Source: Myxococcota bacterium
GTDB lineage: Bacteria > Myxococcota_A > UBA9160 > SZUA-336
Assembly (NCBI GenBank): GCA_965247115.1
Contig: CBDFGR010000003.1
Span: forward strand, 2,528,001 to 2,592,000
DNA length: 64,000 nucleotides
Reading direction: 5' to 3'
Made by a program: the position numbers and the translations under genes. The notes under the pieces were generated by a model, which saw only the letters and a program-made list of their open reading frames with translations, ran no database searches and had not been told where the DNA came from. Of the stretch, positions 36,454 to 64,000 are shown piece after piece. The stretch's first letter is position 1. The number at the start of each line of letters is the position of its first letter.

Positions 36454-36498
36454 TGGTGAGCGCGGCCGGGATCGAACCGGCGACCGGCGGATTAAGAG
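36454..36498 (-). tRNA. 3' half of tRNA-Lys(CTT); integration att site, not a functional tRNA
   Basis: Minus strand CTCTTAA-TCCGCC-GGTC-GCCGG-TTCGATC-CCGGC-CGCGCTC-ACCA: anticodon loop, T-arm and CCA end. The 5' half is absent. Confidence 0.88.
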
Positions 36499-36579
36499 CG
36501 TGATCGATACTCCCGAGAGGGGCTCTACGCGGCGCTTAGAGCGTGACGATGGGGAATCAGGGTCCCCCAGAGACCCCCG

Positions 36580-36603
36580 AACGTCCACTTTAACGTCCAC
36601 TTT
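36580..36603 (+). repeat. Tandem 12-bp direct repeat AACGTCCACTTT x2, putative integrase arm-type sites
   Basis: Perfect duplication about 80 bp inside the att fragment. Confidence 0.65.
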
Positions 36604-36756
36604 GGACGACAACGATGAGCAGCCAGCAGAGTCAGAGCCCGAGGGTCCATCGGAGGAGTGATGGCCCGCTGCTACGCCCAGGATACTCAGCGCGGTCTCC
36701 CGATGGGTAAAAAGGAACTGATGACTGATTTAACAGAAGCAAGTTCAGGAGACTGA

Positions 36757-37749
36757 GTGCTGGTCCGTGGCGACGCTCGAGCGATTCCTCTGGCCGACCA
36801 GGTGGCCGACTGCGTCGTGACCAGCCCTCCGTACTGGGGCCTGCGGACCTACGAGCTCGACGGCCAGATCGGCCTCGAGGAGACGCCCGCTGAGTACCTC
36901 GAGGAGCTCCTGGCCGTGTTCCGGGAGGTACACCGCGTCCTGAAGCCAGAGGGGACGCTCTGGCTCAACCTGGGCGACTGCTACGTCTCTGCCCCGAGCA
37001 GTGGCCACGGCTGGGACAAGAGCACGCTGACGCAGCCGAAGAGCCGCGAGCGCAAGATCCAGCACGCGCAGAGGGACTCGCGGCTCGAGGGCCGGAAGCT
37101 CGAGGGCCTCAAGCCAAAGGACATGGTCGGGATGCCCTGGACGGTCGCGCTCGCGCTGCGCAACGAGGGTTGGTATCTGCGGCGGGACATCATCTGGCAC
37201 AAGCTATCGCCAATGCCCGAGGCAGTGAAAGATCGTCCAACGTCTGCGCACGAGTACCTGTTCCTGCTGGCCAAGTCTCGCCGCTACTACTACGACGCAG
37301 AGGCGATCAAAGAGCCAGCCGTCACCGCCGGCCGTGTGTCTCCCCGCCGGGTCAACCCAAAGGCCAAGGTTCCAGCTGGTTGGGACACGCGACCAGGTTC
37401 CCACCGTCACCTCACAGGGCGCTATCCGGCCCCAAAGCAGAACGCCGGAACTGCCGCGCGCATCGCCAACTCTGTCGAGACTCGAAGTGCGCGCACTGTC
37501 TGGAGCCTGGCCACAGAGCCCTACCACGGCGCGCACATGGCCGTCTTCCCCACCGAGCTCGCGAAGCGCTGCATCCTCGCGGGCTGTCCGGCCGGCGGGC
37601 TTGTGTTCGATCCATTCGTCGGATCGGGGACGACTGTGAAGGTCGCGATCGAGCTCGGCCGCCGAGGCCTCGGGATGGACCTCAAGCACGACTACCTGCA
37701 CGACCAGGCGCGGGAGCGGATCAAGACAACGGTGGGGATGGGGTGGTGA
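36757..37749 (+). CDS. Phage site-specific DNA methyltransferase (N4/N6, beta class)
   Basis: VTSPPYW catalytic motif precedes DPFVGSGTT SAM-binding motif; LKPKDMVGMPW insert. Confidence 0.93.
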   Translation: MLVRGDARAIPLADQVADCVVTSPPYWGLRTYELDGQIGLEETPAEYLEELLAVFREVHRVLKPEGTLWLNLGDCYVSAPSSGHGWDKSTLTQPKSRERKIQHAQRDSRLEGRKLEGLKPKDMVGMPWTVALALRNEGWYLRRDIIWHKLSPMPEAVKDRPTSAHEYLFLLAKSRRYYYDAEAIKEPAVTAGRVSPRRVNPKAKVPAGWDTRPGSHRHLTGRYPAPKQNAGTAARIANSVETRSARTVWSLATEPYHGAHMAVFPTELAKRCILAGCPAGGLVFDPFVGSGTTVKVAIELGRRGLGMDLKHDYLHDQARERIKTTVGMGW

Positions 37750-37783
37750 CGGTCATCCATCCCGGCGTTCCTGAGGAGGGAAA

Positions 37784-38107
37784 GTGAAGCGAACCTTGCT
37801 CGCCCTCGTGCTCGTCGCGTGCGGTCCGGATCTGCCAGAGCTTCCGGAGCCAGCACCCAAGAAGTTTGAGCTTACCAACGAGCGAAAGTGCGTCGCGATC
37901 CAGATGTGCGGGCGCCTCTGTGAGAAACGTAAGGGCATGGAGATGCTGGAGTTCCGTGGTGACATCGGCATCTCCTGGGCGTGTCACTGCAACGGCTACG
38001 GGCTGTTCCACTTCAAGGACCCCGAGCACATCATCTTTCCCGATGGCCTGACTGTCGCTGACTGTGCGCCGACGGGTGTCCACAGCGTGGGTCAGGAGGA
38101 GAAGTGA
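37784..38107 (+). CDS. Small Cys-rich phage lipoprotein
   Basis: MKRTLLALVLVAC lipobox, six further Cys, GAGGAGG RBS. Confidence 0.75.
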   Translation: MKRTLLALVLVACGPDLPELPEPAPKKFELTNERKCVAIQMCGRLCEKRKGMEMLEFRGDIGISWACHCNGYGLFHFKDPEHIIFPDGLTVADCAPTGVHSVGQEEK

Positions 38108-38187
38108 TGACAGATCAGGAGCCCACACCGGAAGAGGCGCAATTGCAGACGGGCAGCCAACCCGTCGCAGGTGAGAGCGATGGCTGA
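38107..38187 (+). CDS. 26-aa mini-ORF between two junction sites
   Basis: AGGAGG RBS, TGATG overlap, MTDQEPTPEEAQLQTGSQPVAGESDG; its stop overlaps the start region of the next gene. Confidence 0.45.
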   Translation: MTDQEPTPEEAQLQTGSQPVAGESDG

Positions 38188-38566
38188 GCCGCTGGATCTG
38201 GACGAGCTGGCAAAGGCTTACCGCTACTTCTGCCCCAAATGTGATTGCTATCACTGGAGCGGATGCGTCACCGACGAGATTATGGACAACCTTGTAGCCG
38301 AGTTGCAGAAGACGAGGCAGCTACTCCGCGCCGCCGCGGATCGACACTTGACCAACCAGCTCGCCGAGGCCCGCGAGGACACGGAGAGGCTGGACTGGCT
38401 GGAGCATGAGCACAGCTACGTCGGTGGCAATTATGGCGAACCTGCCTGGTCCTGCTGTCGTGACGAGCTTGGCAATCGTCAGCTTTTCCACGGTAGCAAC
38501 GCCCGCGAAGCCATCGACGCAGCAATGCAGGCGGGCATCCATCCCGTCGGTACGGAGGGAGATTGA
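38180..38566 (+). CDS. Phage hypothetical protein
   Basis: CPKC..C motif; EDTERLDWLE and AREAIDAAM segments of the kind common in small phage proteins. Confidence 0.75.
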   Translation: MAEPLDLDELAKAYRYFCPKCDCYHWSGCVTDEIMDNLVAELQKTRQLLRAAADRHLTNQLAEAREDTERLDWLEHEHSYVGGNYGEPAWSCCRDELGNRQLFHGSNAREAIDAAMQAGIHPVGTEGD

Positions 38567-39708
38567 ACGGTGTGGCTCTATGTGCCGGGGTTGGAGGACT
38601 TGAGCTGGGACTCAAGCTTGCCCTCGGACCACGGTATCGCTGTGTGGGTTACTGCGAGCGGGACGCCTACGCAGCGGCCTGTCTCGTGGCGCGGATGGAA
38701 GACCAGGCCTTGGATCGCGCGCCTATCTGGGACGATCTTGCGACCTTCCCAAGCGGCCTCTTTAGCGGTGAGGTGGCTCTCATCTCTGCCGGTTTCCCAT
38801 GCCAGCCGTTCAGCGTGGCCGGGGACCAGCGGGGCGTAGACGATGACCGCTGGCTCTGGCCCGACATTGCCCGCATCGTTCGCGAGGTGGGACCCCGCTA
38901 CGTGTTCCTGGAGAACGTGTCAGGCCTCCTTGGTCACGGACTGGGACACATTCTCGGAGACCTGGCCGGGCTCGGGTTCGATGCGGAGTGGAGTGTGTTC
39001 AGTGCAGCCGGAAGCGGAGCACCGCACCTCAGGCGGCGCGTCTTCATCTTGGCCTACTCCCGGCGTGCCAAACGGGGGACGGACCATGAAGCCCGAGGAC
39101 ATTCTGGCGAAAGGAAAGACCGACAAGGGGAAGCGCCAAGTCGGGCTGGAAAATGCCGTCAGGATGTTCCCGACGCCCAGCGCCCAGACCTACGGGACGA
39201 ATCAGGGCGGCGGGATGGGCCGGGTGGGTCCGGTGCGCGAGAGCCTGGAGACGATGGCGCGGAACGGGAGATGGCCCACGCCGACCGCAGGCGACGCGAA
39301 GCAGAGCGGAGCGGCAGCGTACTCAACAGAGAGTGGGAGACACGCCGGAACGACCCTGACGGATGCGATCAGGATGTGGCCGACCCCGGCGGCGAGAGAC
39401 TGGAAGTCCGGTCGGTCAAATCTGATCGGGACGAATGCTCGACCGTTGAGCGAGGTGGTCTTGGTGTGGCCGACGCCCCGAGCAGCCGACAGCATCAAGG
39501 GGCGCAGGACCCCGGAGGGGGCGGCGAAGGAGCGGGCAAGAACGAACGGCCCGGATCTTCCGGCGATGGCTGGTGGCTCACTGAACCCGACATGGGTCGA
39601 GTGGCTGATGGGGTTCCCTCTCGGATGGACCGATTGCGCTGCCTCGGTAACGGAGTCGTACCGGCTGTGGCTGCGAGGGCATTCCGAGTGCTGAGCGCTC
39701 GTCTGTAA
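38563..39708 (+). CDS. C5 DNA cytosine methyltransferase, alpha chain
   Basis: Motifs I LCAGVGG, IV AGFPCQPFS, VI LENV, VIII PHLRRRVF, X RLRCLGNGVV. Confidence 0.92.
   Translation: MNGVALCAGVGGLELGLKLALGPRYRCVGYCERDAYAAACLVARMEDQALDRAPIWDDLATFPSGLFSGEVALISAGFPCQPFSVAGDQRGVDDDRWLWPDIARIVREVGPRYVFLENVSGLLGHGLGHILGDLAGLGFDAEWSVFSAAGSGAPHLRRRVFILAYSRRAKRGTDHEARGHSGERKDRQGEAPSRAGKCRQDVPDAQRPDLRDESGRRDGPGGSGAREPGDDGAEREMAHADRRRREAERSGSVLNREWETRRNDPDGCDQDVADPGGERLEVRSVKSDRDECSTVERGGLGVADAPSSRQHQGAQDPGGGGEGAGKNERPGSSGDGWWLTEPDMGRVADGVPSRMDRLRCLGNGVVPAVAARAFRVLSARL
38843..39694 (+). CDS. Overlapping alternative-frame beta chain of the C5 methyltransferase
   Basis: Five W/FPTP repeats and a motif IX-like LNPTWVEWLMGFPLGWT, entirely inside the alpha gene. 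Confidence 0.7.
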   Translation: MTAGSGPTLPASFARWDPATCSWRTCQASLVTDWDTFSETWPGSGSMRSGVCSVQPEAEHRTSGGASSSWPTPGVPNGGRTMKPEDILAKGKTDKGKRQVGLENAVRMFPTPSAQTYGTNQGGGMGRVGPVRESLETMARNGRWPTPTAGDAKQSGAAAYSTESGRHAGTTLTDAIRMWPTPAARDWKSGRSNLIGTNARPLSEVVLVWPTPRAADSIKGRRTPEGAAKERARTNGPDLPAMAGGSLNPTWVEWLMGFPLGWTDCAASVTESYRLWLRGHSEC

Positions 39709-39795
39709 AGGGTGCTGGAGCGGCTTCCCCGAGTATGCGTGCGGTCAGTGCCTGGAGGTGCCGACGGATAAGACACCCGTCAGTCAGGAGAAGCT

Positions 39796-39993
39796 ATAAG
39801 CAACGTTGTCAATCTAGATTCGCAGCGCCCGCACCTAGTGATCGACAGCTCCGGATTTGGTGGGTCAGTCCGCGTCTACCCGGTGGCCTACTTCGAGGAT
39901 CTCGTAGCAGGTAAGCCGGTTGAGCCCATCCCGGACGATGCTCTACGACAAATCATTGCTGAATGGCTGCTAAGCCGACAGGAATTCGAGTAA
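39796..39993 (+). CDS. Phage hypothetical protein with ATA (mutated or non-canonical) start
   Basis: AGGAG RBS then ATA AGC AAC: (M)SNVVNLDSQRPHLVIDSSGFGGSVRVYPVAYFEDLVAGKPVEPIPDDALRQIIAEWLLSRQEFE. Fills the gap between neighbours exactly; missed by the ORF track. Confidence 0.55.
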   Translation: MSNVVNLDSQRPHLVIDSSGFGGSVRVYPVAYFEDLVAGKPVEPIPDDALRQIIAEWLLSRQEFE

Positions 39994-39995
39994 TA

Positions 39996-40202
39996 ATGGG
40001 ACTCTACGAGGATCTCGCACAGAGCCATCGTAGCTTACGGCGTGGCCAAGTCTGGTGCCGAACCTGCGGGGCTACCCGCAACGTCGATCCCGCAGAGTGT
40101 CTCGGCAAGGGTTGGCCGAAGTGTTGCGGCTACACAATGACGATCGACGCACCTGATGAGCGACCGACGGAGAAGACGACCGTCAGTCAGGAGAAGCCAT
40201 GA
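39996..40202 (+). CDS. Small zinc-ribbon phage protein
   Basis: VWCRTCG...WPKCCGYTM. Confidence 0.7.
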   Translation: MGLYEDLAQSHRSLRRGQVWCRTCGATRNVDPAECLGKGWPKCCGYTMTIDAPDERPTEKTTVSQEKP

Positions 40203-40507
40203 CGCCGGAGCGCAGGGCCGAACTCTACGACTCGATCAGCAATCCCTGTGCCGCCTGCGGATCGGGTGTCACGGCGTCCTGCTTGGAAACTAACGGTTGC
40301 GCGCCACGCGAGAAGCAGATTGGGCGCCTCGCAGACGAGTTCAGAGCTGCTGTCCTGGCCGAGCGAGAGGCGTGCGCGAAAGTGGTAGATCCAGGGTGGC
40401 ATGATTTCCACTCTTGTAACGAGAAGTGCTTCAGAGGGAGGACCATCGCGGCCGAGATCCGCAACCGACCGACGGATACAGACACCGCGGGTCAGCAGGG
40501 CGAGTGA
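40199..40507 (+). CDS. Phage hypothetical protein
   Basis: AVLAEREACAKV...IAAEIR motif, ATGA overlap, RBS. Confidence 0.75.
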   Translation: MTPERRAELYDSISNPCAACGSGVTASCLETNGCAPREKQIGRLADEFRAAVLAEREACAKVVDPGWHDFHSCNEKCFRGRTIAAEIRNRPTDTDTAGQQGE

Positions 40508-40749
40508 GCCACCCCCCGAAGCGGCCTTGGGACTGGCAGTGGGACAATCGGCGGATCTGGATCGGCGCCAAGGGCACATGGTCTGACTATGCATGTGAGA
40601 TCAGGTTCCAAGACAAGCCCGATGCCGAGGCAAGCGCCGAGCACATCGTCCGCTGCGTGAACTCCCACGACGCTCTCGTAGAGATCGGAGGTAGCGAAGA
40701 CACGGAACTCATCGATACCGAAGAGATGGCGTTAGACAGCGCCGCATGA
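40504..40749 (+). CDS. Phage hypothetical protein, possibly 3'-truncated
   Basis: MSHPPKRPW...ASAEHIVRCVNSHDALVE, a common small-phage-gene pattern; GTGA overlap. Confidence 0.6.
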   Translation: MSHPPKRPWDWQWDNRRIWIGAKGTWSDYACEIRFQDKPDAEASAEHIVRCVNSHDALVEIGGSEDTELIDTEEMALDSAA

Positions 40750-49781: not shown

Positions 49782-50177
49782 ATGGACCTGAGCCAGTCTG
49801 CGTTTTCTGTCAGCCACGCTGCCGACGCAAAGGTAGAGAACTTCGATCCGGACGGCATCTTCAAGATACGCGACTTGGGCGTCAAAGGGGTCACAGACGG
49901 GAATGTGGAGGCCCGCATTCTATCGGCGGCTCAACCGTGTCCCGGCAACCTTGGGCGGCACCGACACGATGTTGAACTCCAGGTGTTTTATGTGCTCAAG
50001 GGGTGGGCCAAGTTCCATTTCGAAGGCACCGGTGAGGTTGAGGTGACGGCAGGCTCCTGCGTGAACATGCCCGCAGGCATCGTCCACGACTTGCTGGAGC
50101 ACACCGAGGATTTTGAGTTCCTCGAGATCATCGCGCCATCCCAGCACGACACGGAGTGGATAAAGGCGGTGGAGTAG
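49782..50177 (+). CDS. Cupin domain protein
   Basis: RDLGV, HRHDVELQVFYVLKGW, PAGIVHD. Confidence 0.85.
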   Translation: MDLSQSAFSVSHAADAKVENFDPDGIFKIRDLGVKGVTDGNVEARILSAAQPCPGNLGRHRHDVELQVFYVLKGWAKFHFEGTGEVEVTAGSCVNMPAGIVHDLLEHTEDFEFLEIIAPSQHDTEWIKAVE

Positions 50178-50302
50178 ACCGACCCCTCGAATAAGGGGCC
50201 AGCCTTTCCGGGTCCCCCGGGGAGGGGCCTCGCGCCCGGATGGCATTCTAGTGCCTTCCGGTTTACCACCTCGCCAGATTCTGAGTGTCCTGGTCGTCGA
50301 TT

Positions 50303-50542
50303 CTACCAGTCCGCCTGCAGCGCGTAGCAGCGGCACTGGCAGATCTCGACGGCGCACTCCCCGTTCTCCGTGATCCATGGCTCGCGCACGCACGGGATGC
50401 GGCGCGCGGCCGTCATCCTGGAGCCGAGCATCTCGCCGCAGATCTGGAAGCAGTCGCCGCTCTTCTGCCGGTCTGACGCCGGGATCGTCCCGCAGGCGAC
50501 CAGAGCTCCGAGGCAGAGGCCGAGTACGCCGAGCCGCATCAT
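50303..50542 (-). CDS. Small Cys-rich lipoprotein
   Basis: MMRLGVLGLCLGALVAC lipobox, seven further Cys, ATGA overlap. Confidence 0.6.
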   Translation of the reverse strand: MMRLGVLGLCLGALVACGTIPASDRQKSGDCFQICGEMLGSRMTAARRIPCVREPWITENGECAVEICQCRCYALQADW

Positions 50543-50682
50543 GGCCCCGGGGGGTCCGGATCGAGCGCGAGGCTGGCTACGAGCAGCACGATCGTCACTG
50601 CGAAGGCGCCGACGCACAGGGAGCCGAGCGCGATCCCCGCAACTCTGCGCGCGGGGCTCAGCGCGGAGCTGGCGCACATCAT
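50539..50682 (-). CDS. Small single-TM protein
   Basis: MMCASSALSPARRVAGIALGSLCVGAFAVTIVLLVASLAL; ATGA overlaps at both ends. Confidence 0.5.
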   Translation of the reverse strand: MMCASSALSPARRVAGIALGSLCVGAFAVTIVLLVASLALDPDPPGP

Positions 50683-51095
50683 CGAGTCTCGGACGCCAGC
50701 GCCCTCATCCAGCCTGGCATCGCCATGCCGTGGCGGCAGCACTCGGCGGCTTCCGGTCCGCAGGTGTCGTAAGCGCCGAAGTTCCCGCCCAAAAAGACCG
50801 CGCGGTGGTAGAGGAACCGGATCCAGCGCCAGCGCCACGGGAGCGATGTGCGGATGTTCTCTCTGAGCTCCCCATCGGCGTCGTTCTTGCGCTGCCACGT
50901 CATCGAGCCGGCCGGGTGACAGCGGGTGCAGTACCTCCAGTCGTGGATCCGGCAGGCCCAGCGGAAGTCGAAGCCGAAGAGCTCGTCCGGCGAGCTCGAG
51001 CAGCCGTCGTCCCGAAAGTGCTCCGGGATCTCTGCGAGCGTCCGCTTCGCCTCCTCCGGGATCGGCCGCTGCGATCGGCCGCTTAGAAGCCCCAT
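50679..51095 (-). CDS. Phospholipase A2-like protein
   Basis: DGCSSSPD...FDFRWACRIHDWRY...AD motif pattern of prokaryotic PLA2. Confidence 0.65.
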   Translation of the reverse strand: MGLLSGRSQRPIPEEAKRTLAEIPEHFRDDGCSSSPDELFGFDFRWACRIHDWRYCTRCHPAGSMTWQRKNDADGELRENIRTSLPWRWRWIRFLYHRAVFLGGNFGAYDTCGPEAAECCRHGMAMPGWMRALASETR

Positions 51096-51113
51096 TCCCT
51101 TCTCACCCCCCGC

Positions 51114-51386
51114 TCACTCATCGACCGTGACGCGGCCCGTGATCGGGACCTCGTCCGTTACGGCAGCGGGTTTGTCGCTGCATCCGACCCGCGGGACCTC
51201 GTCCGTTACAGCAGCGGGTTTGTCGCTGCATCCGACCCGCAGGGCGTTGCCCATGACCTCGAGCTCGGCCTCGGCGCCGCCCTCAAAGCCGCAGACATCC
51301 CACATCACCCAGCCGTGCTCTCCTGGCCCGATATGCATCGCACAGGCGGGCAGGAGCAGCATCAACGCGATCATCGCGATCCCCAT
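51114..51386 (-). CDS. Lysis-region lipoprotein (spanin-like position)
   Basis: LLLPAC lipobox, immediately downstream of the endolysin. Confidence 0.6.
   Translation of the reverse strand: MGIAMIALMLLLPACAMHIGPGEHGWVMWDVCGFEGGAEAELEVMGNALRVGCSDKPAAVTDEVPRVGCSDKPAAVTDEVPITGRVTVDE
51144..51239. repeat. 48-bp tandem duplication (1 mismatch)
   Basis: 51144-51191 and 51192-51239, encoding RVGCSDKPAAVTDEVP twice. Confidence 0.9.
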
Positions 51387-51806
51387 TTATGATCCCTCCG
51401 ATACGGTCGACTTGTCGTCGAATTCCAGATGAACGTGACCGACGAGGACGCGCTCTCCCTTGCGTTCTCCGGTCCGGATCTCATGCAGGTGCTCTTCGTA
51501 GACGACGTCGTACCGGCGCTTGCCGTGCTTCGCCTCGAGGCGGCCCTGGATCCGGCCAGCCCATGCCGGGCCTTCGATCTCCCACGGCTTCACCAGGTTC
51601 CACACTCGGATGTCGAAGGCCTGGTCGTCGTAGTGCCGGCTACCCTTCTTGTGCTTCCCATCGTTCGCGCTCGTGATCACGATGCGGCCGTCGGTCATCA
51701 CGGGCGCGGTGTCCTGCGCCGCGTGGAGCATCGCAACCACCTCGGGCTCGAAGTGGCCAGCGTTCAGCTGCACGTCGCCGTTCTTGATCTGGAGCATGGA
51801 CCGCAT
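51387..51806 (-). CDS. Peptidase M15-type endolysin
   Basis: ITSANDGKH..GSRHY..QAFDIR...HVHLE zinc motif. Confidence 0.8.
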   Translation of the reverse strand: MRSMLQIKNGDVQLNAGHFEPEVVAMLHAAQDTAPVMTDGRIVITSANDGKHKKGSRHYDDQAFDIRVWNLVKPWEIEGPAWAGRIQGRLEAKHGKRRYDVVYEEHLHEIRTGERKGERVLVGHVHLEFDDKSTVSEGS

Positions 51807-51853
51807 GGAGCACCTCCTGGTCGACCACGCCTCAGCCGGAAGCGGCGATCAGA

Positions 51854-52144
51854 TCACCTCGGTTGAAGGCACTCCTGCCACGTGCGCCCCGTCTCCAGCA
51901 CGCACTCCTCCGCCTCGTCTAGCATCTTCTGGCGCATCTTCTGCTGCTCGATGTAGGTCATTACTTCGCCGAAGACCTTGTTCTGGACTTCGACCTGGGA
52001 GGCGAGAGCCCCACCGATCTGCTCGTGCACCTTCGCCGCGGACTCTTCGAAGGCAACGCGCTGCCCACCCCAGTAGAAGAGGCTTCCCGTCGGCGTAATG
52101 ATCGCGAACGCCGCGCCCACGACCTTTCCCCATCCGTTCAGCAT
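51854..52144 (-). CDS. Membrane protein, putative holin
   Basis: N-terminal TM plus coiled coil, directly upstream of the endolysin. Confidence 0.5.
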   Translation of the reverse strand: MLNGWGKVVGAAFAIITPTGSLFYWGGQRVAFEESAAKVHEQIGGALASQVEVQNKVFGEVMTYIEQQKMRQKMLDEAEECVLETGRTWQECLQPR

Positions 52145-52161
52145 GTCCGCCTCCTCAGGAT

Positions 52162-52464
52162 CTACTGCACAAGCCTGGCGATGGTTCCGATCAGTGTGAG
52201 CCGCGTTCCGTGGCGGGCGGGGAATTCCGCGAACGGATCGGCGTAGAACTCCACGCCGACCAGGGCGTTGCCACCCGCGTGCTCGATCCTCGACTTACTG
52301 AGCGAGATCAGGCAGCGGAAGCCCGAGTCCGTCCTCTCTCCTCTTGAGGAGCGGGGCTCGTCGGGTACGAAGACCGACAGGTTCAGGTTCCCGAAATAGC
52401 TCGCCGCGTGGCGTCCGCTCACCCAGGGGCTGGTGTAGAACTCGATCTCGGTCTGCTCCACCAT
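52162..52464 (-). CDS. Hypothetical protein, YbjQ-like
   Basis: AGGNALVGVEF...LIGTIARL. Confidence 0.5.
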   Translation of the reverse strand: MVEQTEIEFYTSPWVSGRHAASYFGNLNLSVFVPDEPRSSRGERTDSGFRCLISLSKSRIEHAGGNALVGVEFYADPFAEFPARHGTRLTLIGTIARLVQ

Positions 52465-52489
52465 CCCAACTCCGTCGGGGGATCAATCC

Positions 52490-53350
52490 CTAGAAGCTCG
52501 TCCTTCCCCAGCCCCACCAGGTGGCACCGTCGTAGTAGAAGAAGGCGATGTTCCCCTTGTTCGCTCCGGTGTTCCAGCTGGGTTCGGAGCCTCCTTCCCA
52601 GGTCACGGTCGGCCAAGTCACGGCGCGGCCACCCGTCGCGTCCTGGATCATCCGTACGGCAACCTGTGCAGGCCCGCGCGGCGCAACGAAGGTGAAGGTC
52701 ACGGCTTCGGTCAGCGTGATCTTCGCCTTGTGACCGACCTTGAAATCGATCGTCGCCGCGCCGCCTGAGGAGGTGATGCTCTGCTCGTTCAGCAGTGTCT
52801 GCGTGAACGCGGTATCGAGCTGATCCGCAAGCTCCCCGAGGAAGGTCAATGCCTCGAGATCCCCGACCCTCACCTTGTTGAAGTTTAGGAGCGTCGAGAA
52901 GTCCGTCACGATGGCGTACTCGCGCTCGTTGAGCGTGGACTCCTGGTAGTTCCCGGTAAGGGTGAAGTTGTCCGTCCCGATCGTGCTCGAGAGGTAGTAG
53001 AGGATTCCGGAGTTCTCGATCGAGAAGGGATCCCCGGCGGCGACGCTCGACGAGAAATCTAGCCCGTTGGACGCGGTCGCCAGCGTGTCGATGACGACCG
53101 TCGTCCCCGACCCTCCCCCCGTGATCGTATCGCCGGCAGCAGGGAGCGCTCCGGAGGTTCGGTAGAAGAAGAGCTGCGAGCCGCCCGTGTCGTCGCGTAC
53201 GAAGACGCCAACTCCATCCACAGCCCAGGACAGGGCTTCGGCTGCAGTGAAGGGACCGCCGACCTTCGATACGTAGTCGACCGTCCAGATGTGGCGCACG
53301 ACAGCCGAGCCGTTCTGGACGCGGACCGTACCTTGGTTGAGCTGTGCCAT
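52490..53350 (-). CDS. Tail fibre-associated protein
   Basis: GTVRVQNGS N-terminus, QDATGGRAVTWP..W C-terminal domain. Confidence 0.75.
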   Translation of the reverse strand: MAQLNQGTVRVQNGSAVVRHIWTVDYVSKVGGPFTAAEALSWAVDGVGVFVRDDTGGSQLFFYRTSGALPAAGDTITGGGSGTTVVIDTLATASNGLDFSSSVAAGDPFSIENSGILYYLSSTIGTDNFTLTGNYQESTLNEREYAIVTDFSTLLNFNKVRVGDLEALTFLGELADQLDTAFTQTLLNEQSITSSGGAATIDFKVGHKAKITLTEAVTFTFVAPRGPAQVAVRMIQDATGGRAVTWPTVTWEGGSEPSWNTGANKGNIAFFYYDGATWWGWGRTSF

Positions 53351-53599
53351 CTACGGGGTCCTTGCTCTCGGCCTACGGCGGTTCCTAATCTTCGTCTTGA
53401 TCTGGTCCCTCGTCTGCCCGGTAGCCGTGGCCAATTCGTCGACGAGGACGTCCAAGACGGCGTACCCTTCTAGGTCCTCGTCTGTGGCGTCGGTGGTGAG
53501 GAGGAGATTCGCGGTCCACTCCGCCTCGATCTCGTCGATCTCGGCCTGCCTAAGATTGACGCGAATCCCGTTTACCATCCTGTGAGTGGCGGTGGCCAC
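53351..53599 (-). CDS. Phage hypothetical protein (fibre-associated)
   Basis: HRMVNGIRVNL..EI.E.EAEW. Confidence 0.65.
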   Translation of the reverse strand: MATATHRMVNGIRVNLRQAEIDEIEAEWTANLLLTTDATDEDLEGYAVLDVLVDELATATGQTRDQIKTKIRNRRRPRARTP

Positions 53600-53601
53600 G
53601 A

Positions 53602-55545
53602 TCAGGGTCCTCCGATCCCGAACAGCCGAATGCGTCCCGAGCTCATGTTGCCCGAGCTCATCAGGATCCGGATGTCCGTGATCTGGGACCCGCTGCTCTG
53701 ATTACCGCCAAAGAGCGAAGTCTGCGAGGTGTTGCCCGCCGCGTCCTGCACACCCGTCCCGATGATCCCGAAGCACGGTCCTCCTGACGCCATCCCGTAT
53801 ATCTGGAACTTACAGTTCCAGCCCTCGCCCGTAGCCGTGCCCACTCCCTCATTCACCGTACTGCCATTGAGGGCAATTGCGGTGGCACTGTTAAGCTGTC
53901 GAGTACCCAACCCGAATTCGTTGTGGTTCAGGCACCGCCAACTATACGTAGTGGTCGTGAGAAAATTGCTGCCACCATCAGTACTGACACGTACCCACAC
54001 GAATGTATCATCAGTAGCCGGTACAAGATCCTCGATGAAGACCTCATAGGCACCGTACCCCTGGTCGATGTCGAAGTCCGCAGTAGCCGTGCTGCTCAGA
54101 GCGGTGTTAACGAGTTGCTCGCCCTGGGTCATCTTGATCATCTCGTCCAGGCTGAGCGTGCCCAACGTGATGCGAGAGGCTGTGATGGTTCGGGTGGCTA
54201 TATCTCCCGCAACGATGGTCGCTGCCGCAATCTGAGTTGTGGTGATCGTTCCAGCGACGAGCTTTCCACCTGTGATCGTCGCGCTGGCGATGTTGGCGGC
54301 CTGAATCGTGTTCGCCGCGATTTGCGTGGTGGTGATCGTCGCGGCCGCGATCTCTGTGGCAGTGATCGTATTCGCTGCGATCTTGGCGGCGGTAATCGTG
54401 TTGGCGGCGATCTCGCCAGCGGTGATCGTGAGTGCGAGAATCTCGGCCGCAGTGATTGTGTTCGCCGCAATGTTGCCGGCGAGGATCGTGTTCGCCGCGA
54501 TCTCATTCGTCGTGATCGTGGCGGCGAGGATCTCGGCCGCCGTGAGCGTGTTGGCCAGGACATGCGCGGCCGTGATCTCGTTCGGCCCGATGTGGACCCC
54601 GAGGATCTCGTCGAGGCCGACGAACTCCGAGACTGCCAGCGCCCGGGCATCGAACGAGTCCCACAGGTAGACCATGGACTCTGCCGGCGCCGGCGTGTTG
54701 AGACGGGGACCGAAGGTCGCGTAAGCGGAACCCGAAGGGGCAGTCGCGCGGACCGACACGGTGCCCCAGGAGCCGACCGGAGGTTCTATCGCCCCGCCGG
54801 TCGTCTCTCCGAGGGATGCCCCGTCCTTGTCGTAGAAGATGATGGACGCGCGAGCGTAAGACCCATTGGAATCGGCTACGAGGCGAACCCGGCCCTGGAC
54901 GGCAAACCCCTCGCCCTCGGCCGCCTCGATGAACTTGCCGGAGACGAACGCTCCCTTCGAACCTCCTGGGGCGTTCGCTTCGGCGCGGGCGGTCGAAGTC
55001 TGCCCGGAAGACTGGAACCGGCCCATCTGGAGGCCGTGGAAGGGCGTACTGGCGCCTTCCGTCGCGACCACATCCCACGTGCCGCCGCCCGACGTCGTCG
55101 CCCATTGGTCCGAAAGGTTGGTCCCCTCAAACGAGGGGTCCGCGACCAGATTGTCGAGTCTTGCGATACCGAGCTGCTCGAGCGTGACGCTCAAGTCGGC
55201 GATGTCTTGGTCGACGAGCGACGCCGTCGTGTGCGAGAGCTCGGAGCTGACATTCAGCAGCGCCGGGTTCTCGGTGAAGTCGTCGTAGGCGGCGACCTTC
55301 AGGTAGTAGGTCGTCCCCGGCTCGACATCGATGATCGCCGGCTTCGCGTTCCCCCGGTAGACGAGAGTCGTCTCGTCGGTGGCAAAGCCCGGGCTCTTGC
55401 TCATCCAGACCAGGATCCCGGCCCAGTCCGCGTCCACGGGTGTCGCGTAGCGGAGGAAGAGTGTCTCGAACGTCGAGGTGATCTGGACGTTGCTGAGCGC
55501 CCGCGGTGCCGGGTTCTGCACCGTCAGGAGCGTGAACTCGCTCAT
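53602..55545 (-). CDS. Tail fibre: FN3-like, carbohydrate-binding-like and decapeptide-repeat domains (probably the frameshifted 3' part of TipJ)
   Basis: GTTYYLKVAAYD, NLVADPSFE, about 15 ANTITAAEIA-like repeats. Confidence 0.8.
   Translation of the reverse strand: MSEFTLLTVQNPAPRALSNVQITSTFETLFLRYATPVDADWAGILVWMSKSPGFATDETTLVYRGNAKPAIIDVEPGTTYYLKVAAYDDFTENPALLNVSSELSHTTASLVDQDIADLSVTLEQLGIARLDNLVADPSFEGTNLSDQWATTSGGGTWDVVATEGASTPFHGLQMGRFQSSGQTSTARAEANAPGGSKGAFVSGKFIEAAEGEGFAVQGRVRLVADSNGSYARASIIFYDKDGASLGETTGGAIEPPVGSWGTVSVRATAPSGSAYATFGPRLNTPAPAESMVYLWDSFDARALAVSEFVGLDEILGVHIGPNEITAAHVLANTLTAAEILAATITTNEIAANTILAGNIAANTITAAEILALTITAGEIAANTITAAKIAANTITATEIAAATITTTQIAANTIQAANIASATITGGKLVAGTITTTQIAAATIVAGDIATRTITASRITLGTLSLDEMIKMTQGEQLVNTALSSTATADFDIDQGYGAYEVFIEDLVPATDDTFVWVRVSTDGGSNFLTTTTYSWRCLNHNEFGLGTRQLNSATAIALNGSTVNEGVGTATGEGWNCKFQIYGMASGGPCFGIIGTGVQDAAGNTSQTSLFGGNQSSGSQITDIRILMSSGNMSSGRIRLFGIGGP
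54135..54615 (-). repeat. 30-bp coding tandem repeat (ANTITAAEIA-like decapeptide, about 15 units)
   Basis: Seen directly in the translation; boundaries approximate. Confidence 0.8.
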
Positions 55546-58500
55546 CCCAAGGCGCCGCGATGTCGATAGCCGACCTGGATCTGGAACTGGCGCAGGATCG
55601 TCTTGCCCCGACGCGCAGCGTCCGCTCGCTGCTTCTCGATCGTGTAGGTGTACTCGGGGTTCCGAACGCTGTCCTCGCGAACGATCTCGTCCGCGCCGGC
55701 CAGGTCGACGATCCGGACCAGGTAGGAACTCCGGGAGTCGAACGGGAGGTCGTCGCCGCCAGGCTGGGCGATCGGGTCAGGGATTCCGTCCGGGGCGTTG
55801 AGACGCCACGTGAAGTGCGCGTCCCGCCCCTCGAAGTCCGTATCGTTCCCTTGCCCCAGGAGCTGCAGGCCCGTCACCTTGAACGTGGGAGTGGGGACTT
55901 CCGCGCTATTGAACGAAACCTCCGTCTTCGTCACGAAGGCAGAGAAGACACCGCCTGGCGAGAGCGAGCGAGCGCGCACGTCGTAGCGGGATCCATCGAC
56001 CAATGGTCCGATGCGCACGTGGTCCGCAGTCCCTGGTAAGAGCGGTTCGACCGTCCACTCGCCAGGCAATTCCGGCGGGATCGGGTGCTCACGCCACTGG
56101 ATCTGCACGTGAGCCGCTTCGATGCCGGTCTTGGAGGTCGGGATCGAGATCTCCACGAGAAGTCGGTCTCCCGCCACTACAGCGTTGCCAAGCGTCGGGA
56201 CCGGAGGGGCATCAAACTTGTCGTGGCTGATCTGCGACTCGAGCTCCGGGATGGGGCCGGTATCCGAGTCGTAGACAGCCTCGGCGTAGGGGATCAGCAC
56301 AAGCTTCGCGCGAACTCCGTCGAGCGGCTCGATGCGCTTGAGGAGCATCGGAAAGGTCCCGATCACGGTCTCCACGACGTAGACCTGGTCCCCGACGACG
56401 GGCTGGTCCTCTGTGTTGGGAATCGGTGTGGAGAAGGTGACGAGCGTCCCCGGGGTCGCCGGGTTCGTGATGCCCTGGAGCGCCGTTGCCCCGGGAGGGC
56501 TCGAGGCCGAGAGTTGGAGTCGTGCCGAATAGGTCTTCGCCGCCTCGTACTGGATCTCCTCATCGAGCACGACCGACACGACGTCCGTCCCCGAGGTGTT
56601 CACGGTCTGGATCCGGCCGTAGCCGACGCCCACCTTCATGACGTCGTCCACGAGCTCGACACGGTCGCCGACCTGGGCAGTGAGGTATTCCCAGTCCATT
56701 TCCCGCTCGACGCGTTCCGAGCGGAGCCGGCCCTGAGCGATGTGAAAGCGGCCGTGGCGCCAGAGACGGGCCGGGTTGGTCTGTCCCGGCACGCGGATGA
56801 CCTCGAATTTGGAGGCGACGGTCGTGCCGCCGGCGCCATCCTCCGAGAAGCCGTCGTCGTACACGACGAGCTCGTCCGGCTCGTACTCCTTCTCCTCGTT
56901 CAGGAACGGTAGCTTGACGGCATGGGGCAGGTCCACGAAGTCCCGCTGGCCTCCCGTCCCGGCTGTGTTCCGGGGAGACACGTGCATCGAGGCGACGGGC
57001 TTCTTCTCGTCGATCGCGACGGAGTACTTCCCGTCGATCTGCGTGAAGAACCCTCGGCCCGCCGACATGATCTGGCGCAGCGACTCGATCCGCCGGCGCT
57101 CGACGTCGTGCACGGCGTCGTAGCGCCAGTTTTCGGCCTCACAGAAGGCCGCCCAGGACTGGAGCTTCGTGAGATCGACCCGCGAGAGAGGCACAGGGCG
57201 GGAGTTCGAGGAGCCACGCAGGACCTCGAGCGCCGCCCAGGCGGGGTTCCCGCCGAACTCGACGAGCGGAGCCGTGATGCCCTCCGCATCCGCGGTCGGG
57301 TGGGTGGGGTCGTAGGCGGGCAGCATCGCGCGCGCGAGGCAGTTAAAACTCTCGATCGTTCCCGAGAGCTGGTCGGTCGCCTTGATGCGCAGCGCGATCT
57401 TCGCGAGCCCGTCGAGCTTGATCGGGTCCTCGCTGCGGATCGAGCGCAGCACGACCCAGATCGCCTCGTCGTTCTCCACCCCAGAGGCCACGGCGGAGAA
57501 GGTCGAGCGGACCCGGACGTCGTACTGCCCCGAGGCCACGTCCCACGTGAACCCGATCGAGAAGGGCGTGTCTGTCTGTCGGACGATCTCCCAGGTGTCA
57601 TGGATCGCGAGGCCCCCGATGCGGGGCGAGCCCTGCCCCGCCGGGATGCGCTGGACGCCTGCGGGCGTGCCCTTGATCGAGGACACGTCCTCCCAGGGAT
57701 CCCCGCTCCCGGTGAGCCGAAACTGCAGCTCGAACCAGCGCCAGCCGAAGCCGACGGTCCCCCGGTTGTTCCTGCGGCTGAGACCCCGCAAAAAACGGAC
57801 GTCGACCCCGATCTGGTCCACTGCGATGTCCGTGGTGCGCGTGTGCCAAGGCCCGCCGATCGCCGCCTGCACGCCGAGCGTCGTCTGGTTGTCCTGGAGC
57901 TTGACTCCGACGCCCTCCTCCTCGATCTGGGACGAGTAGAGCGTGATGGGCGGCGCGCCGGGGAAGCCCTGCCGCACCTCGGTCTCGACGTCGTCGTAGT
58001 CGCTGAGCGCGGTCTTCCCGATCCGGAACTGGTCTTCCGGCAGCTCGAGCGGGCCGAAGCCGGGAACGAACAGCAGCCGGAGGTAGTGGTCGTCGCCGAC
58101 CACCTCCGTCACCGGATTCAGGAAGAACGGCTTGATCCGGTGAGTCCCGAAGTGACGCCAGATCACGCCCCGTGCCAGCTGGTTCCGCGCACCCGAGAGC
58201 GTCGGGCTCGACCGCTGGTCAATCCCGTCCCCGCCGTCATCGGGTCGGGAAAGCGCATTGATGATGAGATGCGTCGCCAGGCTGACAGCGACATAGACGC
58301 CGACTTTGATTGCCGTCGCGGCCAAACCGGTAGCTCCGGTCGCCTTGATTATGAAAGAGCTGATCGCTGCGCTAATCGGATCCGTGCCTGGTTGCGCGAT
58401 GACGCTTACGAATGATCCCGGCTCAGGCCAGAGATCCCCAGATCTTCGCGGAATGGGTAGGTCGTCGATGACGAATCGCAACTGGCTCGTGGGCACGGTG

Positions 58501-58640
58501 CCGAAGCCCACACGCTGCGCGATCTCGCGCAGGCTCAGCCCTGGCTCAAGATCGAAGAACGCGCGCTGGGAAGTGAGCGGATGCTCAACTGCTACGACGC
58601 GGATCGAATCCGGATGTAGCTGTGGATCATGGGTTGCCAC
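55542..58640 (-). CDS. Host-specificity / tail tip protein TipJ-like
   Basis: LSGARNQ, GFGPL, GQYDVRVR, ALRIKATDQLSG, NPAW. Confidence 0.9.
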   Translation of the reverse strand: MATHDPQLHPDSIRVVAVEHPLTSQRAFFDLEPGLSLREIAQRVGFGTVPTSQLRFVIDDLPIPRRSGDLWPEPGSFVSVIAQPGTDPISAAISSFIIKATGATGLAATAIKVGVYVAVSLATHLIINALSRPDDGGDGIDQRSSPTLSGARNQLARGVIWRHFGTHRIKPFFLNPVTEVVGDDHYLRLLFVPGFGPLELPEDQFRIGKTALSDYDDVETEVRQGFPGAPPITLYSSQIEEEGVGVKLQDNQTTLGVQAAIGGPWHTRTTDIAVDQIGVDVRFLRGLSRRNNRGTVGFGWRWFELQFRLTGSGDPWEDVSSIKGTPAGVQRIPAGQGSPRIGGLAIHDTWEIVRQTDTPFSIGFTWDVASGQYDVRVRSTFSAVASGVENDEAIWVVLRSIRSEDPIKLDGLAKIALRIKATDQLSGTIESFNCLARAMLPAYDPTHPTADAEGITAPLVEFGGNPAWAALEVLRGSSNSRPVPLSRVDLTKLQSWAAFCEAENWRYDAVHDVERRRIESLRQIMSAGRGFFTQIDGKYSVAIDEKKPVASMHVSPRNTAGTGGQRDFVDLPHAVKLPFLNEEKEYEPDELVVYDDGFSEDGAGGTTVASKFEVIRVPGQTNPARLWRHGRFHIAQGRLRSERVEREMDWEYLTAQVGDRVELVDDVMKVGVGYGRIQTVNTSGTDVVSVVLDEEIQYEAAKTYSARLQLSASSPPGATALQGITNPATPGTLVTFSTPIPNTEDQPVVGDQVYVVETVIGTFPMLLKRIEPLDGVRAKLVLIPYAEAVYDSDTGPIPELESQISHDKFDAPPVPTLGNAVVAGDRLLVEISIPTSKTGIEAAHVQIQWREHPIPPELPGEWTVEPLLPGTADHVRIGPLVDGSRYDVRARSLSPGGVFSAFVTKTEVSFNSAEVPTPTFKVTGLQLLGQGNDTDFEGRDAHFTWRLNAPDGIPDPIAQPGGDDLPFDSRSSYLVRIVDLAGADEIVREDSVRNPEYTYTIEKQRADAARRGKTILRQFQIQVGYRHRGALG

Positions 58641-58978
58641 AGGCGCGTCCTATACGGCTCGAGCACGGAGCCCGCGGGCTTCCGTGTGTGGAGCATGAGG
58701 TTCTCTGCGACGATCACTCCGAGATGAGACAGCCAGCCGTGGGCCCTGAAGATCACGAGATCCAGAAGGTCTGGTGCGTCCACCGTCTCGTACTTCAGCG
58801 CCTCCTCGGAGATCAGTTGGTCCAACAGGCCCCGATCATCGACGTCGTATTCAAGCGATGGAAGGTCCCTGCCCAATTGCTCCGCCACAACCCTTCTTGT
58901 GAGTTGCCAGCAATCGGATTCCGCAAATGGGATCCCGACGTACTCGTTCACCCATTCGGGCGGATGCCTTGGGAGCAT
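58592..58978 (-). CDS. NlpC/P60 tail protein
   Basis: YVGIPF..DCWQL...HLGV....MLH. Confidence 0.85.
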   Translation of the reverse strand: MLPRHPPEWVNEYVGIPFAESDCWQLTRRVVAEQLGRDLPSLEYDVDDRGLLDQLISEEALKYETVDAPDLLDLVIFRAHGWLSHLGVIVAENLMLHTRKPAGSVLEPYRTRLWQPMIHSYIRIRSAS

Positions 58979-58986
58979 CTCTGGCT

Positions 58987-59454
58987 TCAGAAGGCGCCCG
59001 GCGTCGTCTTGGGATCGAAGTGATAGCCGGGATAGGCATCGTTCAGGAAGTCGTCGATCAGAAGATCGACCTCGACACGGAGCTCCGAGTAGCGTGCCTG
59101 CCCCCAGCGGAAGAGGAACGGGCCGTGCTGGACCGTGGTCGGGTCCGAGATCGACACGAAGTCGACCTGCGTCTGAGGGGCGGAGGACGTCGTGCGAATC
59201 GCGTCGATCAGATCCCGCAGCACATTGTCGACCACGAGCGTGCCGCGGGGCTCCCCCTCGGAGAAGTCGGCAGGCAGCGTGATGGCGACGTCGCGCGCAA
59301 TCCATGTCTCACCCCCGGGTCCGACCACGTCCTCGGTGTTGTCCACCAGCCGCACCGGCTCTGGGAGCTCGTCGTGTGTGATCGTGACGAGGGTCAGGAT
59401 TCCCTCTGTCGAGCGCGGCTTCAGCGTCTCCCGGGTGAACGCGTCGGTGGGCAT
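58987..59454 (-). CDS. DUF1833 family tail protein
   Basis: LTLVTITH..L.EPVRLVDNTED...FDPKTTPGAF. Confidence 0.8.
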   Translation of the reverse strand: MPTDAFTRETLKPRSTEGILTLVTITHDELPEPVRLVDNTEDVVGPGGETWIARDVAITLPADFSEGEPRGTLVVDNVLRDLIDAIRTTSSAPQTQVDFVSISDPTTVQHGPFLFRWGQARYSELRVEVDLLIDDFLNDAYPGYHFDPKTTPGAF

Positions 59455-59456
59455 CG

Positions 59457-59822
59457 CTATGCCGGCAGCCTGACGACAGCGAACTCGATGTTGACGTTGT
59501 CGGCCTCGAAGTGGAGCTTGTTGGTGGTCTGCCTCCAGCCAGAGGTCTTGTAGGGTCCGAAGATCCGGATGCCCGGGCGTCCCCCTACCGCAGCGGGCAC
59601 AGAGGCGGTGGCATCGCGCGTACGGTGCAGCGAGTCCGGGATCGACGTGATCGTCACGTTGTGCGCGCCGCCCGTATCGACATTCTGGGCGATGATCATC
59701 TCGGTTCCGGTGAGCGCCGTCTCCTCCTTGTTCGTGACATCGGCCGCGACAAAGGGGAGATTCTTGCCTGTATAGTCGACGTTCGCGCCCGCGACGACAG
59801 CCGTGTGACTCTTGCGTGCCAT
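59457..59822 (-). CDS. Phage structural hypothetical protein
   Basis: 121 aa ORF with RBS, tightly packed in the tail operon. Confidence 0.7.
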   Translation of the reverse strand: MARKSHTAVVAGANVDYTGKNLPFVAADVTNKEETALTGTEMIIAQNVDTGGAHNVTITSIPDSLHRTRDATASVPAAVGGRPGIRIFGPYKTSGWRQTTNKLHFEADNVNIEFAVVRLPA

Positions 59823-59834
59823 CCAATCCCCTCG

Positions 59835-60194
59835 CTACGGCAAGATCACGAGCGGCATGATCGTTCTCCAGATCGGCCCATCCCGATGCGTAGAGATCGA
59901 TGTCCACTCCGGCGGGCTTTCAAAGGCGAGGGACACGGTCGAACCGTCGACCGGGTCCTTCCAGTCGAAGGGCTCCGCTCCCTCTTTCAGGGTCGTAATG
60001 AAGAACGTGTCGAAGGTGACGCGCTGCGGATTGGTCAGAACGATCGGGATCGAGACGGACTGAAGGACGACCGTCGCACGGCGCCTGGTCTTGAACGGCC
60101 CGACCGCAACGGGAGAGCGCAGGAGCGCAGACCTACGTGTATGGCGGAGTCCGAGGAAAGGACTCGGAGGTAGCGAGCCAGGCCACGCCGTCAC
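59835..60194 (-). CDS. Minor tail (distal tail / gpM-like) protein
   Basis: AWPGSLP, GPFKTRRR, TLKEGAEPFDWKDP. Confidence 0.8.
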   Translation of the reverse strand: MTAWPGSLPPSPFLGLRHTRRSALLRSPVAVGPFKTRRRATVVLQSVSIPIVLTNPQRVTFDTFFITTLKEGAEPFDWKDPVDGSTVSLAFESPPEWTSISTHRDGPIWRTIMPLVILP

Positions 60195-60229
60195 TAGCGT
60201 CTCGTTGCCCGCCGCGGCACGTCGAAGGC

Positions 60230-62899: not shown

Positions 62900-63230
62900 C
62901 GCGGTCTTTCCTCCTCAAGCCGAACCCGGAGAAGGCGCGCATCAGCTTCTCTTTCATCCGTTCTGCCTCAAAGGGCCGGCTTCGCCGGGGCATGAAGTCA
63001 TCGATCTCGAAGGCCGGCGACCCTTTCGCTCGGTGCGCGTTCGCATAGAGCGCCGCTTGGAGTGCGCTCCGGGACCACTCATCCCCGAAGGGCTCGAGGT
63101 CCCACATGGCCTGCCACTCCGTGAACTCAGACGCCGACACCCGTCGCCGGAGTTCGGCGACGGTCATCCCGAGGGCTAGGGCGAGCCGGAACTCGAATCG
63201 GGCGTCTCGGTAGAAGCGGAGCCTTTTCCC
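62892..63230 (-). CDS. Tail assembly chaperone GT, -1 frameshift extension
   Basis: -1 frame after the slippery site reads RLRFYRDARFEFRLALALGMTVAELRRRVSASEFTEW...EPFG. Confidence 0.85.
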   Translation of the reverse strand, partial: GKRLRFYRDARFEFRLALALGMTVAELRRRVSASEFTEWQAMWDLEPFGDEWSRSALQAALYANAHRAKGSPAFEIDDFMPRRSRPFEAERMKEKLMRAFSGFGLRRKDRDA

Positions 63231-63649: not shown

Positions 63650-63658
63650 GTCCGCTCC

Positions 63659-64000
63659 TTACGGTGTGAACGTCACGTCGCTGATCACCTTCAGCGTGAC
63701 CGCCGTACGCATTGCGCTCGCGGGATCCCCAGACGGGTTGAAGCTCGTGAGAATCGCAGCGAAGTCGAACTGGAACGCCCCGGCGTCGGGCAAGACGATC
63801 TTCCAGTTCTTCTTCCCCGCCTTCCAAGCAGAGATCAGCCCGGTGGACGAATCGTGAGTGGGATCGGCGGGCAGGAGGTTTACTTCAAACGTCAGTTCGC
63901 CTCCGTCGCTCGCGCCCTCGATGTAGTCCTTGAGCCCGGCCGAATCCATGTGCGTGACCTCGATCGTGTCGGTCGTCAGATTTGGCCCGCCCCAGGTCAC
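63659..64000 (-). CDS. Major tail tube protein (5' end outside the window)
   Basis: DTIEVTHMDS..KDYIEGASDGGELTFEVN. Confidence 0.88.
   Translation of the reverse strand: MTWGGPNLTTDTIEVTHMDSAGLKDYIEGASDGGELTFEVNLLPADPTHDSSTGLISAWKAGKKNWKIVLPDAGAFQFDFAAILTSFNPSGDPASAMRTAVTLKVISDVTFTP

Follow-up and report, generated by a model that had tools for sequence, protein, structure and literature searches.

How do temperate phages exchange single accessory genes without breaking their neighbors? This long-standing question, to which linker-guided exchange and random joining followed by selection are the opposing answers, is raised by a row of small prophage genes in a window of 64,000 nucleotides (C3:2528001-2592000) of the 5.17-Mb genome (G000; three contigs, C1, C2, and C3) of a Myxococcota bacterium. 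A palindromic site recurs at the junctions of these genes, and the initial annotation proposed that it might define a gene-cassette system. The unit carrying this site is ~40 bp long, reads in frame as the tail of a gene, and consists of 10-bp inverted arms, a 7-bp spacer, a ribosome-binding site (RBS), and overlapping stop and start codons. It shows a cassette-like behavior, with the gain, loss, and reordering of genes at the unit.

Genes gained, lost, and reordered at the units

A scan of the whole genome with a matrix built from seven window copies gave 17 matches of at least 21 bits, all 17 of them located in prophage arrays; at a threshold of 17 bits, 30 matches were obtained, 20 of them in prophage arrays. 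Gene ends called by a script were scored with a refined matrix trained on the array sites: those reaching at least 12 bits amounted to 17 of the 5,133 called, all in frame and all in arrays, and none was the end of a host gene. The 35 sites of at least 12 bits are distributed across seven arrays, that of the window (W) and six sisters, namely B (C1:37.3-41.7 kb), C (C2:133.7-138 kb), D (C2:235.4-240 kb), E (C2:762 kb), F (C3:1,176-1,183 kb, split by an insertion sequence, IS), and K (C2:1,297 kb). Arrays W, B, C, D, E, and F begin beside an att site or a tRNA. The carriers differ in their integrase, target tRNA (Lys, His, Leu, Gly, SeC), and virion type; one of these prophages has a P22-like portal, another a T7-like connector. 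The genes carried encode three types of orphan DNA methyltransferases, which are likely to be protective against restriction, along with DUF5131, HTH, and Gp49/HigB-like genes and ORFans.

The initial annotation had suggested checking whether gene gain or loss between related phages breaks at the sites. Upon stringent alignment of the arrays, 41 distinct breakpoints were found between sister arrays, 15 of which lie inside units, which make up 5.3% of the 23,928 nt (enrichment p 1e-9, or 9e-6 if either partner is counted); these are not independent events, one deletion giving two breakpoints. Two further breakpoints fall in degenerate units below the threshold. The other 26 of the 41 lie at the ends of ISs, at the edges of arrays, or at deletions that truncate genes.

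At three junctions, the site is an exact hybrid of two others. The site at C2:136012 joins the left half of C1:40267 to the right half of C1:39203, the crossover falling within a 13-bp interval, and the 1,064-bp cassette of a C5-methyltransferase is absent. C2:239884 consists of the left half of window site 37746 and the right half of C1:37310 (4,006 bp when compared with array B; 11-bp interval), and C3:1182930 of the left half of window site 39761 and the right half of window site 40164 (403 bp; 8-bp interval). The order of the genes also varies: the N6-methyltransferase gene is the first in arrays W, B, and C and the last in array D. One protein bears two different tails depending on the gene that follows. 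The homologs of a 68-aa open reading frame (ORF) stop near the residue where the unit starts, and the tail was found in none of the 119 homologs from outside the arrays; the same holds for the second gene tested (none of 38).

In short-read contigs from four runs on a single sample, which was probably the source of the genome, branch points appear at 37764, 38164, 38536, and 40164, and five of the off-site deletions are likewise present. This indicates that the junctions are not long-read errors; an assembly artefact was rejected on these grounds. No circles or new site-to-site joints were detected in the contigs of these four runs, contigs being liable to drop rare forms. An apparent joint between 39696 and 38526 was rejected as a circle because it proved to be a chromosomal sister site at single-copy depth. 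Three deletions of 243, 405, and 114 bp in array B (C1:41613-41574, C1:39492) are all in frame, with no microhomology; the fact that all three are multiples of 3 (chance ~0.04) is in line with selection against polarity. Microhomology deletion was rejected as the origin of the off-site junctions, 0 nt being shared in the four of four tested. Since the units occur at no host gene end and breakpoints fall within them, the proposal of a gene-cassette system is supported.

The unit and its setting

All eight copies given in the initial annotation were found on the + strand, and the next start codon lies 12-16 nt beyond the right arm, as described there. The consensus is GACCGACGGG-N7-CCCGTCGGTC, followed by an AGGAG-type RBS and a stop codon overlapping the next start; the dyad site covers 27 bp inside the ORF, and the tail amounts to 11-14 codons in frame. 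Other points needed revision. The arms are indeed inverted, but instead of flanking a 9-bp spacer they are better parsed as 8-7-8, extending to 10-7-10: a CGA codon stands directly 5' of the site in 7 of 23 flanks, vs. 0.9% in phage codon usage. The length of the spacer is fixed, whereas its sequence, described as variable, falls into families: among 27 copies, CATCCAT occurs 8 times, CAGCCAA 4 times, and TCCCAAC 3 times. One spacer is repeated five times in array B, and the spacer order varies between arrays; the idea of an ordered spacer scaffold was rejected for these reasons. About 8 of the 12 junctions in the window array carry a site, rather than nearly all of them, those at 36757, 39697, 39996, and 40750 being without one. 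Most copies are in-frame tails of upstream ORFs, but 37746 forms a 13-codon mini-ORF of its own, 38146 closes a 26-codon mini-ORF, and 39761 closes a 5'-truncated gene fragment rather than a whole gene, the following start being ATA.

None of the 27 copies is a perfect palindrome, the best having 7 of 8 arm pairs. Across the dyad, conservation is roughly symmetric (r 0.69, p 0.06, n 8), including that of the inner CGG/CCG. The Pro codons of the unit are CCC in 18 of 19 cases, vs. 27% usage, which suggests that the unit is conserved at the DNA level. A conserved peptide was rejected as the selected feature in view of this codon choice and of the absence of the tail from outside homologs; an RNA hairpin was also rejected, because the covariation across 18 aligned sites was no different from that of shuffled controls and a hairpin was predicted in context for only 5 of the 27 copies. 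In a scan of the window for other spacer lengths, the background was similar at all lengths. With up to 6 mismatches to the post-hoc consensus, 6 copies were found in the array, vs. a mean of 0.08 in shuffled sequences (maximum 2; 500 shuffles), and 1 copy in the remaining 59 kb of the window. Two near-palindromes of the 10-7-10 type, intergenic and similar to each other, adjoin island att sites at C2:32275 and C3:2330775; they differ from the array consensus at 4 positions and may be due to chance.

The window array, which is read on the + strand, begins at an attR (36454..36498, - strand), a 45-bp copy of the 3' half of tRNA-Lys(CTT) from the first base of the anticodon loop, with a 100% match to C3:2634150-2634194. 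The ORF at 36454..36661 (+) represents the tRNA-Lys integrase gene at its 3' end, in the form that would be read in the excised phage (attP), and ends in a degenerate junction unit (36623..36661, +; position weight matrix score 3.5), in the right arm of which a breakpoint vs. array D is located. Since the integrase ORF (C3:2634071-2635462) runs through att in the frame of this window ORF, the array would directly follow int in the excised phage, in the position of the b region of lambda. The first unit closes the int gene itself, and no unit was found at other early-gene ends. Next comes an N6/N4 DNA methyltransferase gene (36757..37749, +; PF01555, E 1.6e-46; phrog_67), whole, deleted, or IS-cut copies of which occur at differing positions in five sister arrays. 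The unit forming the 13-codon mini-ORF (37746..37787, +; spacer CATCCAT), the left parent of the recombinant C2:239884, is followed by a 107-aa ORF (37784..38107, +) without any family match, labeled lipoprotein-like from its sequence, which ends in the unit at 38069-38107. The 26-codon mini-ORF containing unit 38146 (38107..38187, +; spacer CAGCCAA), where the short-read unitigs branch at 38164, is followed by a gene that differs in arrays B and C; in the window, this is a 128-aa ORF (38180..38566, +; weak match to phrog_13871, E 0.005) ending in the unit at 38528-38566 (spacer CATCCAT).

The C5 DNA methyltransferase cassette (38563..39708, +; PF00145, E 8.9e-35) shows site-to-site presence or absence between arrays B and C. 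Two long ORFs of the + strand overlap here in different frames (38563-39708 and 38843-39694) and match two families of phage methyltransferases, phrog_363 and phrog_1008; WPTP motifs recur in the inner ORF. The 3' fragment of a Cys-rich gene (39697..39799, +), which is longer in array F, was joined by an off-site deletion and ends in unit 39761. A 403-bp cassette (39761..40163, +), absent site-to-site in array F, holds two ORFs: a phrog_30574 ORF with an ATA start and the 68-aa Cys-rich ORF (39996-40202), to the natural C-terminus of which the next junction unit (40164..40202, +) is an in-frame addition. The array then continues with a 102-aa ORF (40199..40507, +), which ends in the unit at 40469-40507 (spacer TACAGAC), and closes with an 81-aa ORF (40504..40749, +) having a 49-bp patch and the unit family in common with a gene of arrays D, E, and F.

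The array is separated from the lysis region by ~9 kb of genes resembling those of the host (40768-49600; an S8 peptidase and predicted outer-membrane or receptor genes). PHROG matches identify lambda-like prophage late genes (tape measure, tail) at 49782..64000 (-), and beyond the window there are head genes, Sak4, SSB, a Cas4-domain exonuclease, xis, and an integrase at tRNA-His. One end of this prophage is the tRNA-Lys attR (36454) and the other the tRNA-His integrase (C3:2613504), while the Lys integrase lies 70 kb away in inverted orientation (C3:2634119); this mismatch suggests either an inversion between prophages or a misjoin. The tRNA-Lys integrase has also inserted at non-tRNA sites (C2:235392, C2:279331; also C3:5939, C1:1403), with a 7-nt overlap that differs from the tRNA loop in 2 nt at both att ends, and C2:235.4-279.4 kb resembles a complete 44-kb prophage whose portal is P22-like. 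The genome is very rich in islands: many tRNA 3' halves are duplicated in it, and 32 matches to tyrosine recombinases were obtained. Within this one genome, near-identical lysis-region, integrase/RecT, and array modules are common to virion modules of the lambda-like, P22-like, and T7-connector types (L001, L003, L005, L014, L015, and window 49782-64000). An 8.4-kb element at tRNA-Gly (C2:133607-142004) carries an integrase and an array without recognised virion genes, and could be a remnant or a satellite. A gene which, judging by its sequence, is ATP-dependent-ligase-like is located near array D.

Possible mechanisms of exchange

The unit can be regarded as a gene-end linker, and we tentatively take short-homology recombination between similar copies to be the likeliest cause of the gain, loss, and reordering of genes. 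The array may extend the early operon, which after excision would be read through from int across attP. A crossover joining two copies would leave both ORFs in frame and coupled, whereas off-site joins would break genes: when in register, it would swap the tails and keep the stop on the next start, so that the products would be viable. The uniform frame would then result from the translational coupling of the genes, whichever enzyme is involved. The exchange might be carried out by phage annealases (RecT-exoVIII or Sak4-SSB) or by replication slippage, with partners having the same spacer being favored; insertions would duplicate the unit and might in this way give rise to the spacer families. 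The dyad might serve as a protein-bound or hairpin hotspot, possibly derived from an att core.

RecT-exoVIII is encoded by some of the carriers, and Sak4-SSB is also encoded in these prophages. The longest perfect runs in the three parent pairs are 13, 11, and 18 nt, vs. a median of 5; only 14.5% of the pairs reach 11, which places the three parent pairs within the top 15% by this measure. The switch points are scattered across unit positions 1-35, and ~6 of the 16 in-unit switches are off-core or imprecise (hand count). A rare left arm is common to C1:41693 and C2:238859 from position 1; the switch is in the tail at C3:1182390 and at the RBS at window 36747 and C2:1297038; the spacer has been lost at C2:236770 and C2:133945. 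Recent exchanges involve poor palindromes such as 37746 (4 of 8 pairs). Since the carriers have different integrases and targets, no single enzyme is linked to the sites. In the available parts of the relevant reports, Sak4 with its SSB anneals single strands (PMC5928155), and the minimum homology quoted for Red-beta is 23-27 bp (PMC3945230). This latter value weighs against short-homology recombination, as the crossover intervals of 8, 11, and 13 bp of perfect identity fall below it. So does the fact that the crossover between 40164 and 39761 missed a longer run of 18 bp. About 10 of the 16 in-unit switches, including the whole CATCCAT family, fit a cut at the edge of the spacer, and the symmetric conservation across the dyad points the same way. 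The lack of microhomology at the four off-site junctions tested leaves a general microhomology pathway unsupported, and the enrichment of breakpoints, which are not independent, is inflated by selection for intact genes.

In a strong rival explanation, which we rate only somewhat lower, a tyrosine recombinase has its core sites in the units. The best candidate would be an integrase of these phages that recognizes tRNA anticodon arms; acting on attB-like mimics, it would excise and insert cassettes in the manner of an integron, with the spacer families as compatibility groups. The 10-7-10 layout with its asymmetric spacer, the symmetric conservation, and the switches compatible with a spacer-edge cut argue for this rival, as does conservation at the DNA level (the CCC codons) without covariation. 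With up to 3 mismatches allowed, the arm consensus is found at twelve places in the genome: 11 array sites and, in register, the anticodon arm of tRNA-Lys(TTT). The match to this arm, 17/20 (P 0.003, shuffled arms vs. the best of 52 tRNAs), was noticed post hoc, and CGG-N9-CCG is present in 13 of the 52 tRNAs. The window attR begins at the anticodon loop, the int gene alone among the early genes is closed by a unit, identical spacers are joined in two of the three recombinants, the tRNA-Lys(CTT) integrase has also used secondary sites with an altered 7-nt overlap, and a relative of the integrase (~43% identical) is located at tRNA-Lys(TTT) in 1 of 14 related-integrase loci. The real target of the linked integrase, tRNA-Lys(CTT), matches at only 14/20, however, and ranks joint 4th of 52; its targets all have T to the right of the overlap (position 16), as compared with 0 of 20 sites; and no att duplicate of tRNA-Lys(TTT) of at least 20 bp was found in the genome. 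No copy of the site is intact, some switches are off-core, and integrases of the lambda type require arm-type sites. The integron-like mechanism put forward in the initial annotation was not borne out, given these ~6 off-core or imprecise switches, the absence of circles and new site-to-site joints from the contigs of the one sample, and the lack of both an integron integrase (28 matches to TIGR02249, the best 78 bits vs. a cut-off of 265) and a second recombinase, none being detected in the window array or among the 75 prophage proteins scanned; the 3 serine recombinase matches are all away from the arrays. In the more specific form of a phage-borne integron analogue, in which the phage's own tRNA-targeting integrase would recombine in-frame tRNA-Lys anticodon-arm mimics at gene ends, so that anti-restriction genes and other accessory ones would be shuffled within an array starting at the 3' end of int, with spacer families as compatibility groups, the idea seems unlikely. 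If it were true that an integrase does the exchange, this would be an integron-like system native to phages.

It is improbable that the dyad is mainly regulatory (a repeated operator or an ESAS-like translational coupler), with recombination as a by-product of the many similar copies. The fixed position 12-16 nt upstream of start codons, the symmetric inner CGG/CCG, the uniform frame, and the stop/start overlap would suit a regulatory element, and inverted repeats beside an RBS have a precedent in the ESAS (PMC3203893). Against this, hairpins are predicted for few copies, covariation does not exceed that of the shuffled controls, no unit holds a promoter-like site, and the occurrence of the same spacers beside unrelated genes points to copying by recombination. 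As for the operator or translational control envisaged in the initial annotation, the data can be explained without a purely regulatory role, but the unit probably functions in part through translational coupling. Still less probable is the absence of any special element, breakpoints being set at gene ends by random joining and selection for intact genes, and the motif being an inherited gene tail. The 26 off-site breakpoints and the location of every site at a gene boundary would fit, but ~20 unrelated genes close with the same DNA unit, the tail is missing from all the outside homologs (0/119 and 0/38), and the three half-and-half hybrids largely refute this explanation. Exchange between linkers by short-homology recombination is the reading we prefer. 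As a single genome contains seven arrays, with parents and exact hybrids, defined 40-bp sites and a short list of enzymes are at hand for testing the linker model. The unit settles placement, reading frame, and translation in one piece.

Comparison with known systems

Searches beyond this genome did not yield any other array. Two patterns gave 0 matches in viral_contigs. Pattern scans gave 25 single matches in metagenome_contigs and 39 in genome_contigs; when these 64 loci were re-scanned with the matrix, no junction array was found, and none was present at 47 further loci. In 40 and then 224 genomes of the class, there were only scattered matches, of the same order as with a reversed-pattern control, and no array; the sole junction-like match among the relatives precedes a putative thiolase-like host gene. 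Two other genomes of the genus had only tRNA pieces in common with this one. Protein-led searches of viral_contigs gave no relative, blastn against a phage collection no match, and Rfam nothing real. No description of the element was found in the literature covered, which left out subscription papers and supplements.

The unit is akin to the PeSLs of the T4-type phages RB49 and phi1. PeSLs are intergenic units of a sigma-70 promoter and a terminator in lytic phages, and the same paper summarizes the Botstein-Campbell "linker" model (PMC2839356). In both cases, a repeated element with a dyad and an RBS lies between non-essential genes, insertions, deletions, and replacements break at its copies, and no dedicated recombinase has been found (PMC2839356). 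The present unit differs in being coding and translationally coupled, with a fixed 7-bp spacer, beside att, and in temperate phages. The intergenic stable stem-loop terminator of the PeSL has no match in a unit that is inside ORFs, with hairpins predicted for 5/27 copies and no covariation. The one sigma-70-like promoter site detected in 4.5 kb, at 40733, is outside all the units, although the host promoter consensus may differ; and mini-circles were not seen here in the contigs of the four runs from one sample.

Like an integron, the array has a recombinase gene beside co-oriented, promoterless single-gene units which are closed by imperfect palindromes and gained or lost precisely; it differs in having no IntI above the cut-off and a 27-bp site lying within the ORF. 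The mismatch to attC pointed out in the initial annotation was confirmed, the RYYYAAC end being present in 1 of 23 sites and the GTTRRRY end in 0 of 23. The same applies to dif, an AT-rich 11-6-11 site with XerC and XerD arms, as compared with the GC-rich 10-7-10 unit; no dif-like site was found in the host with the motif tried. The copies also differ from the pdif/dif modules of Acinetobacter plasmids (PMC13141974) in being GC-rich, all co-oriented, and coding. With the SAS/ESAS of cluster K mycobacteriophages, the unit shares an inverted repeat that directly precedes an RBS-like motif and recurs at numerous unrelated small genes, but the ESAS arms are 17 bp long, their spacer is variable, and no gene exchange is mentioned in the available part of that report (PMC3203893), whereas the unit has 10-bp arms, a fixed 7-bp spacer, and exchange has been shown. 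The anticodon-loop attB cores of tyrosine integrases are likewise symmetric around a 7-nt loop (bioRxiv 10.1101/2020.11.02.365908); the stem, 7-nt loop, stem, and GGTC layout of the unit corresponds to that of the host tRNA-Lys(TTT), its arms matching at 17/20, a likeness recognized post hoc. Unlike these cores, the unit occurs in many degenerate copies within the phage, without a T-arm, and matches the actual target of the linked integrase at 14/20. The unit is a real element, which works like PeSL or linker shuffling without belonging to the PeSLs, the integrons, or the pdif modules, and which is unusual for a phage linker in being coding, coupled, att-adjacent, and att-core-like.

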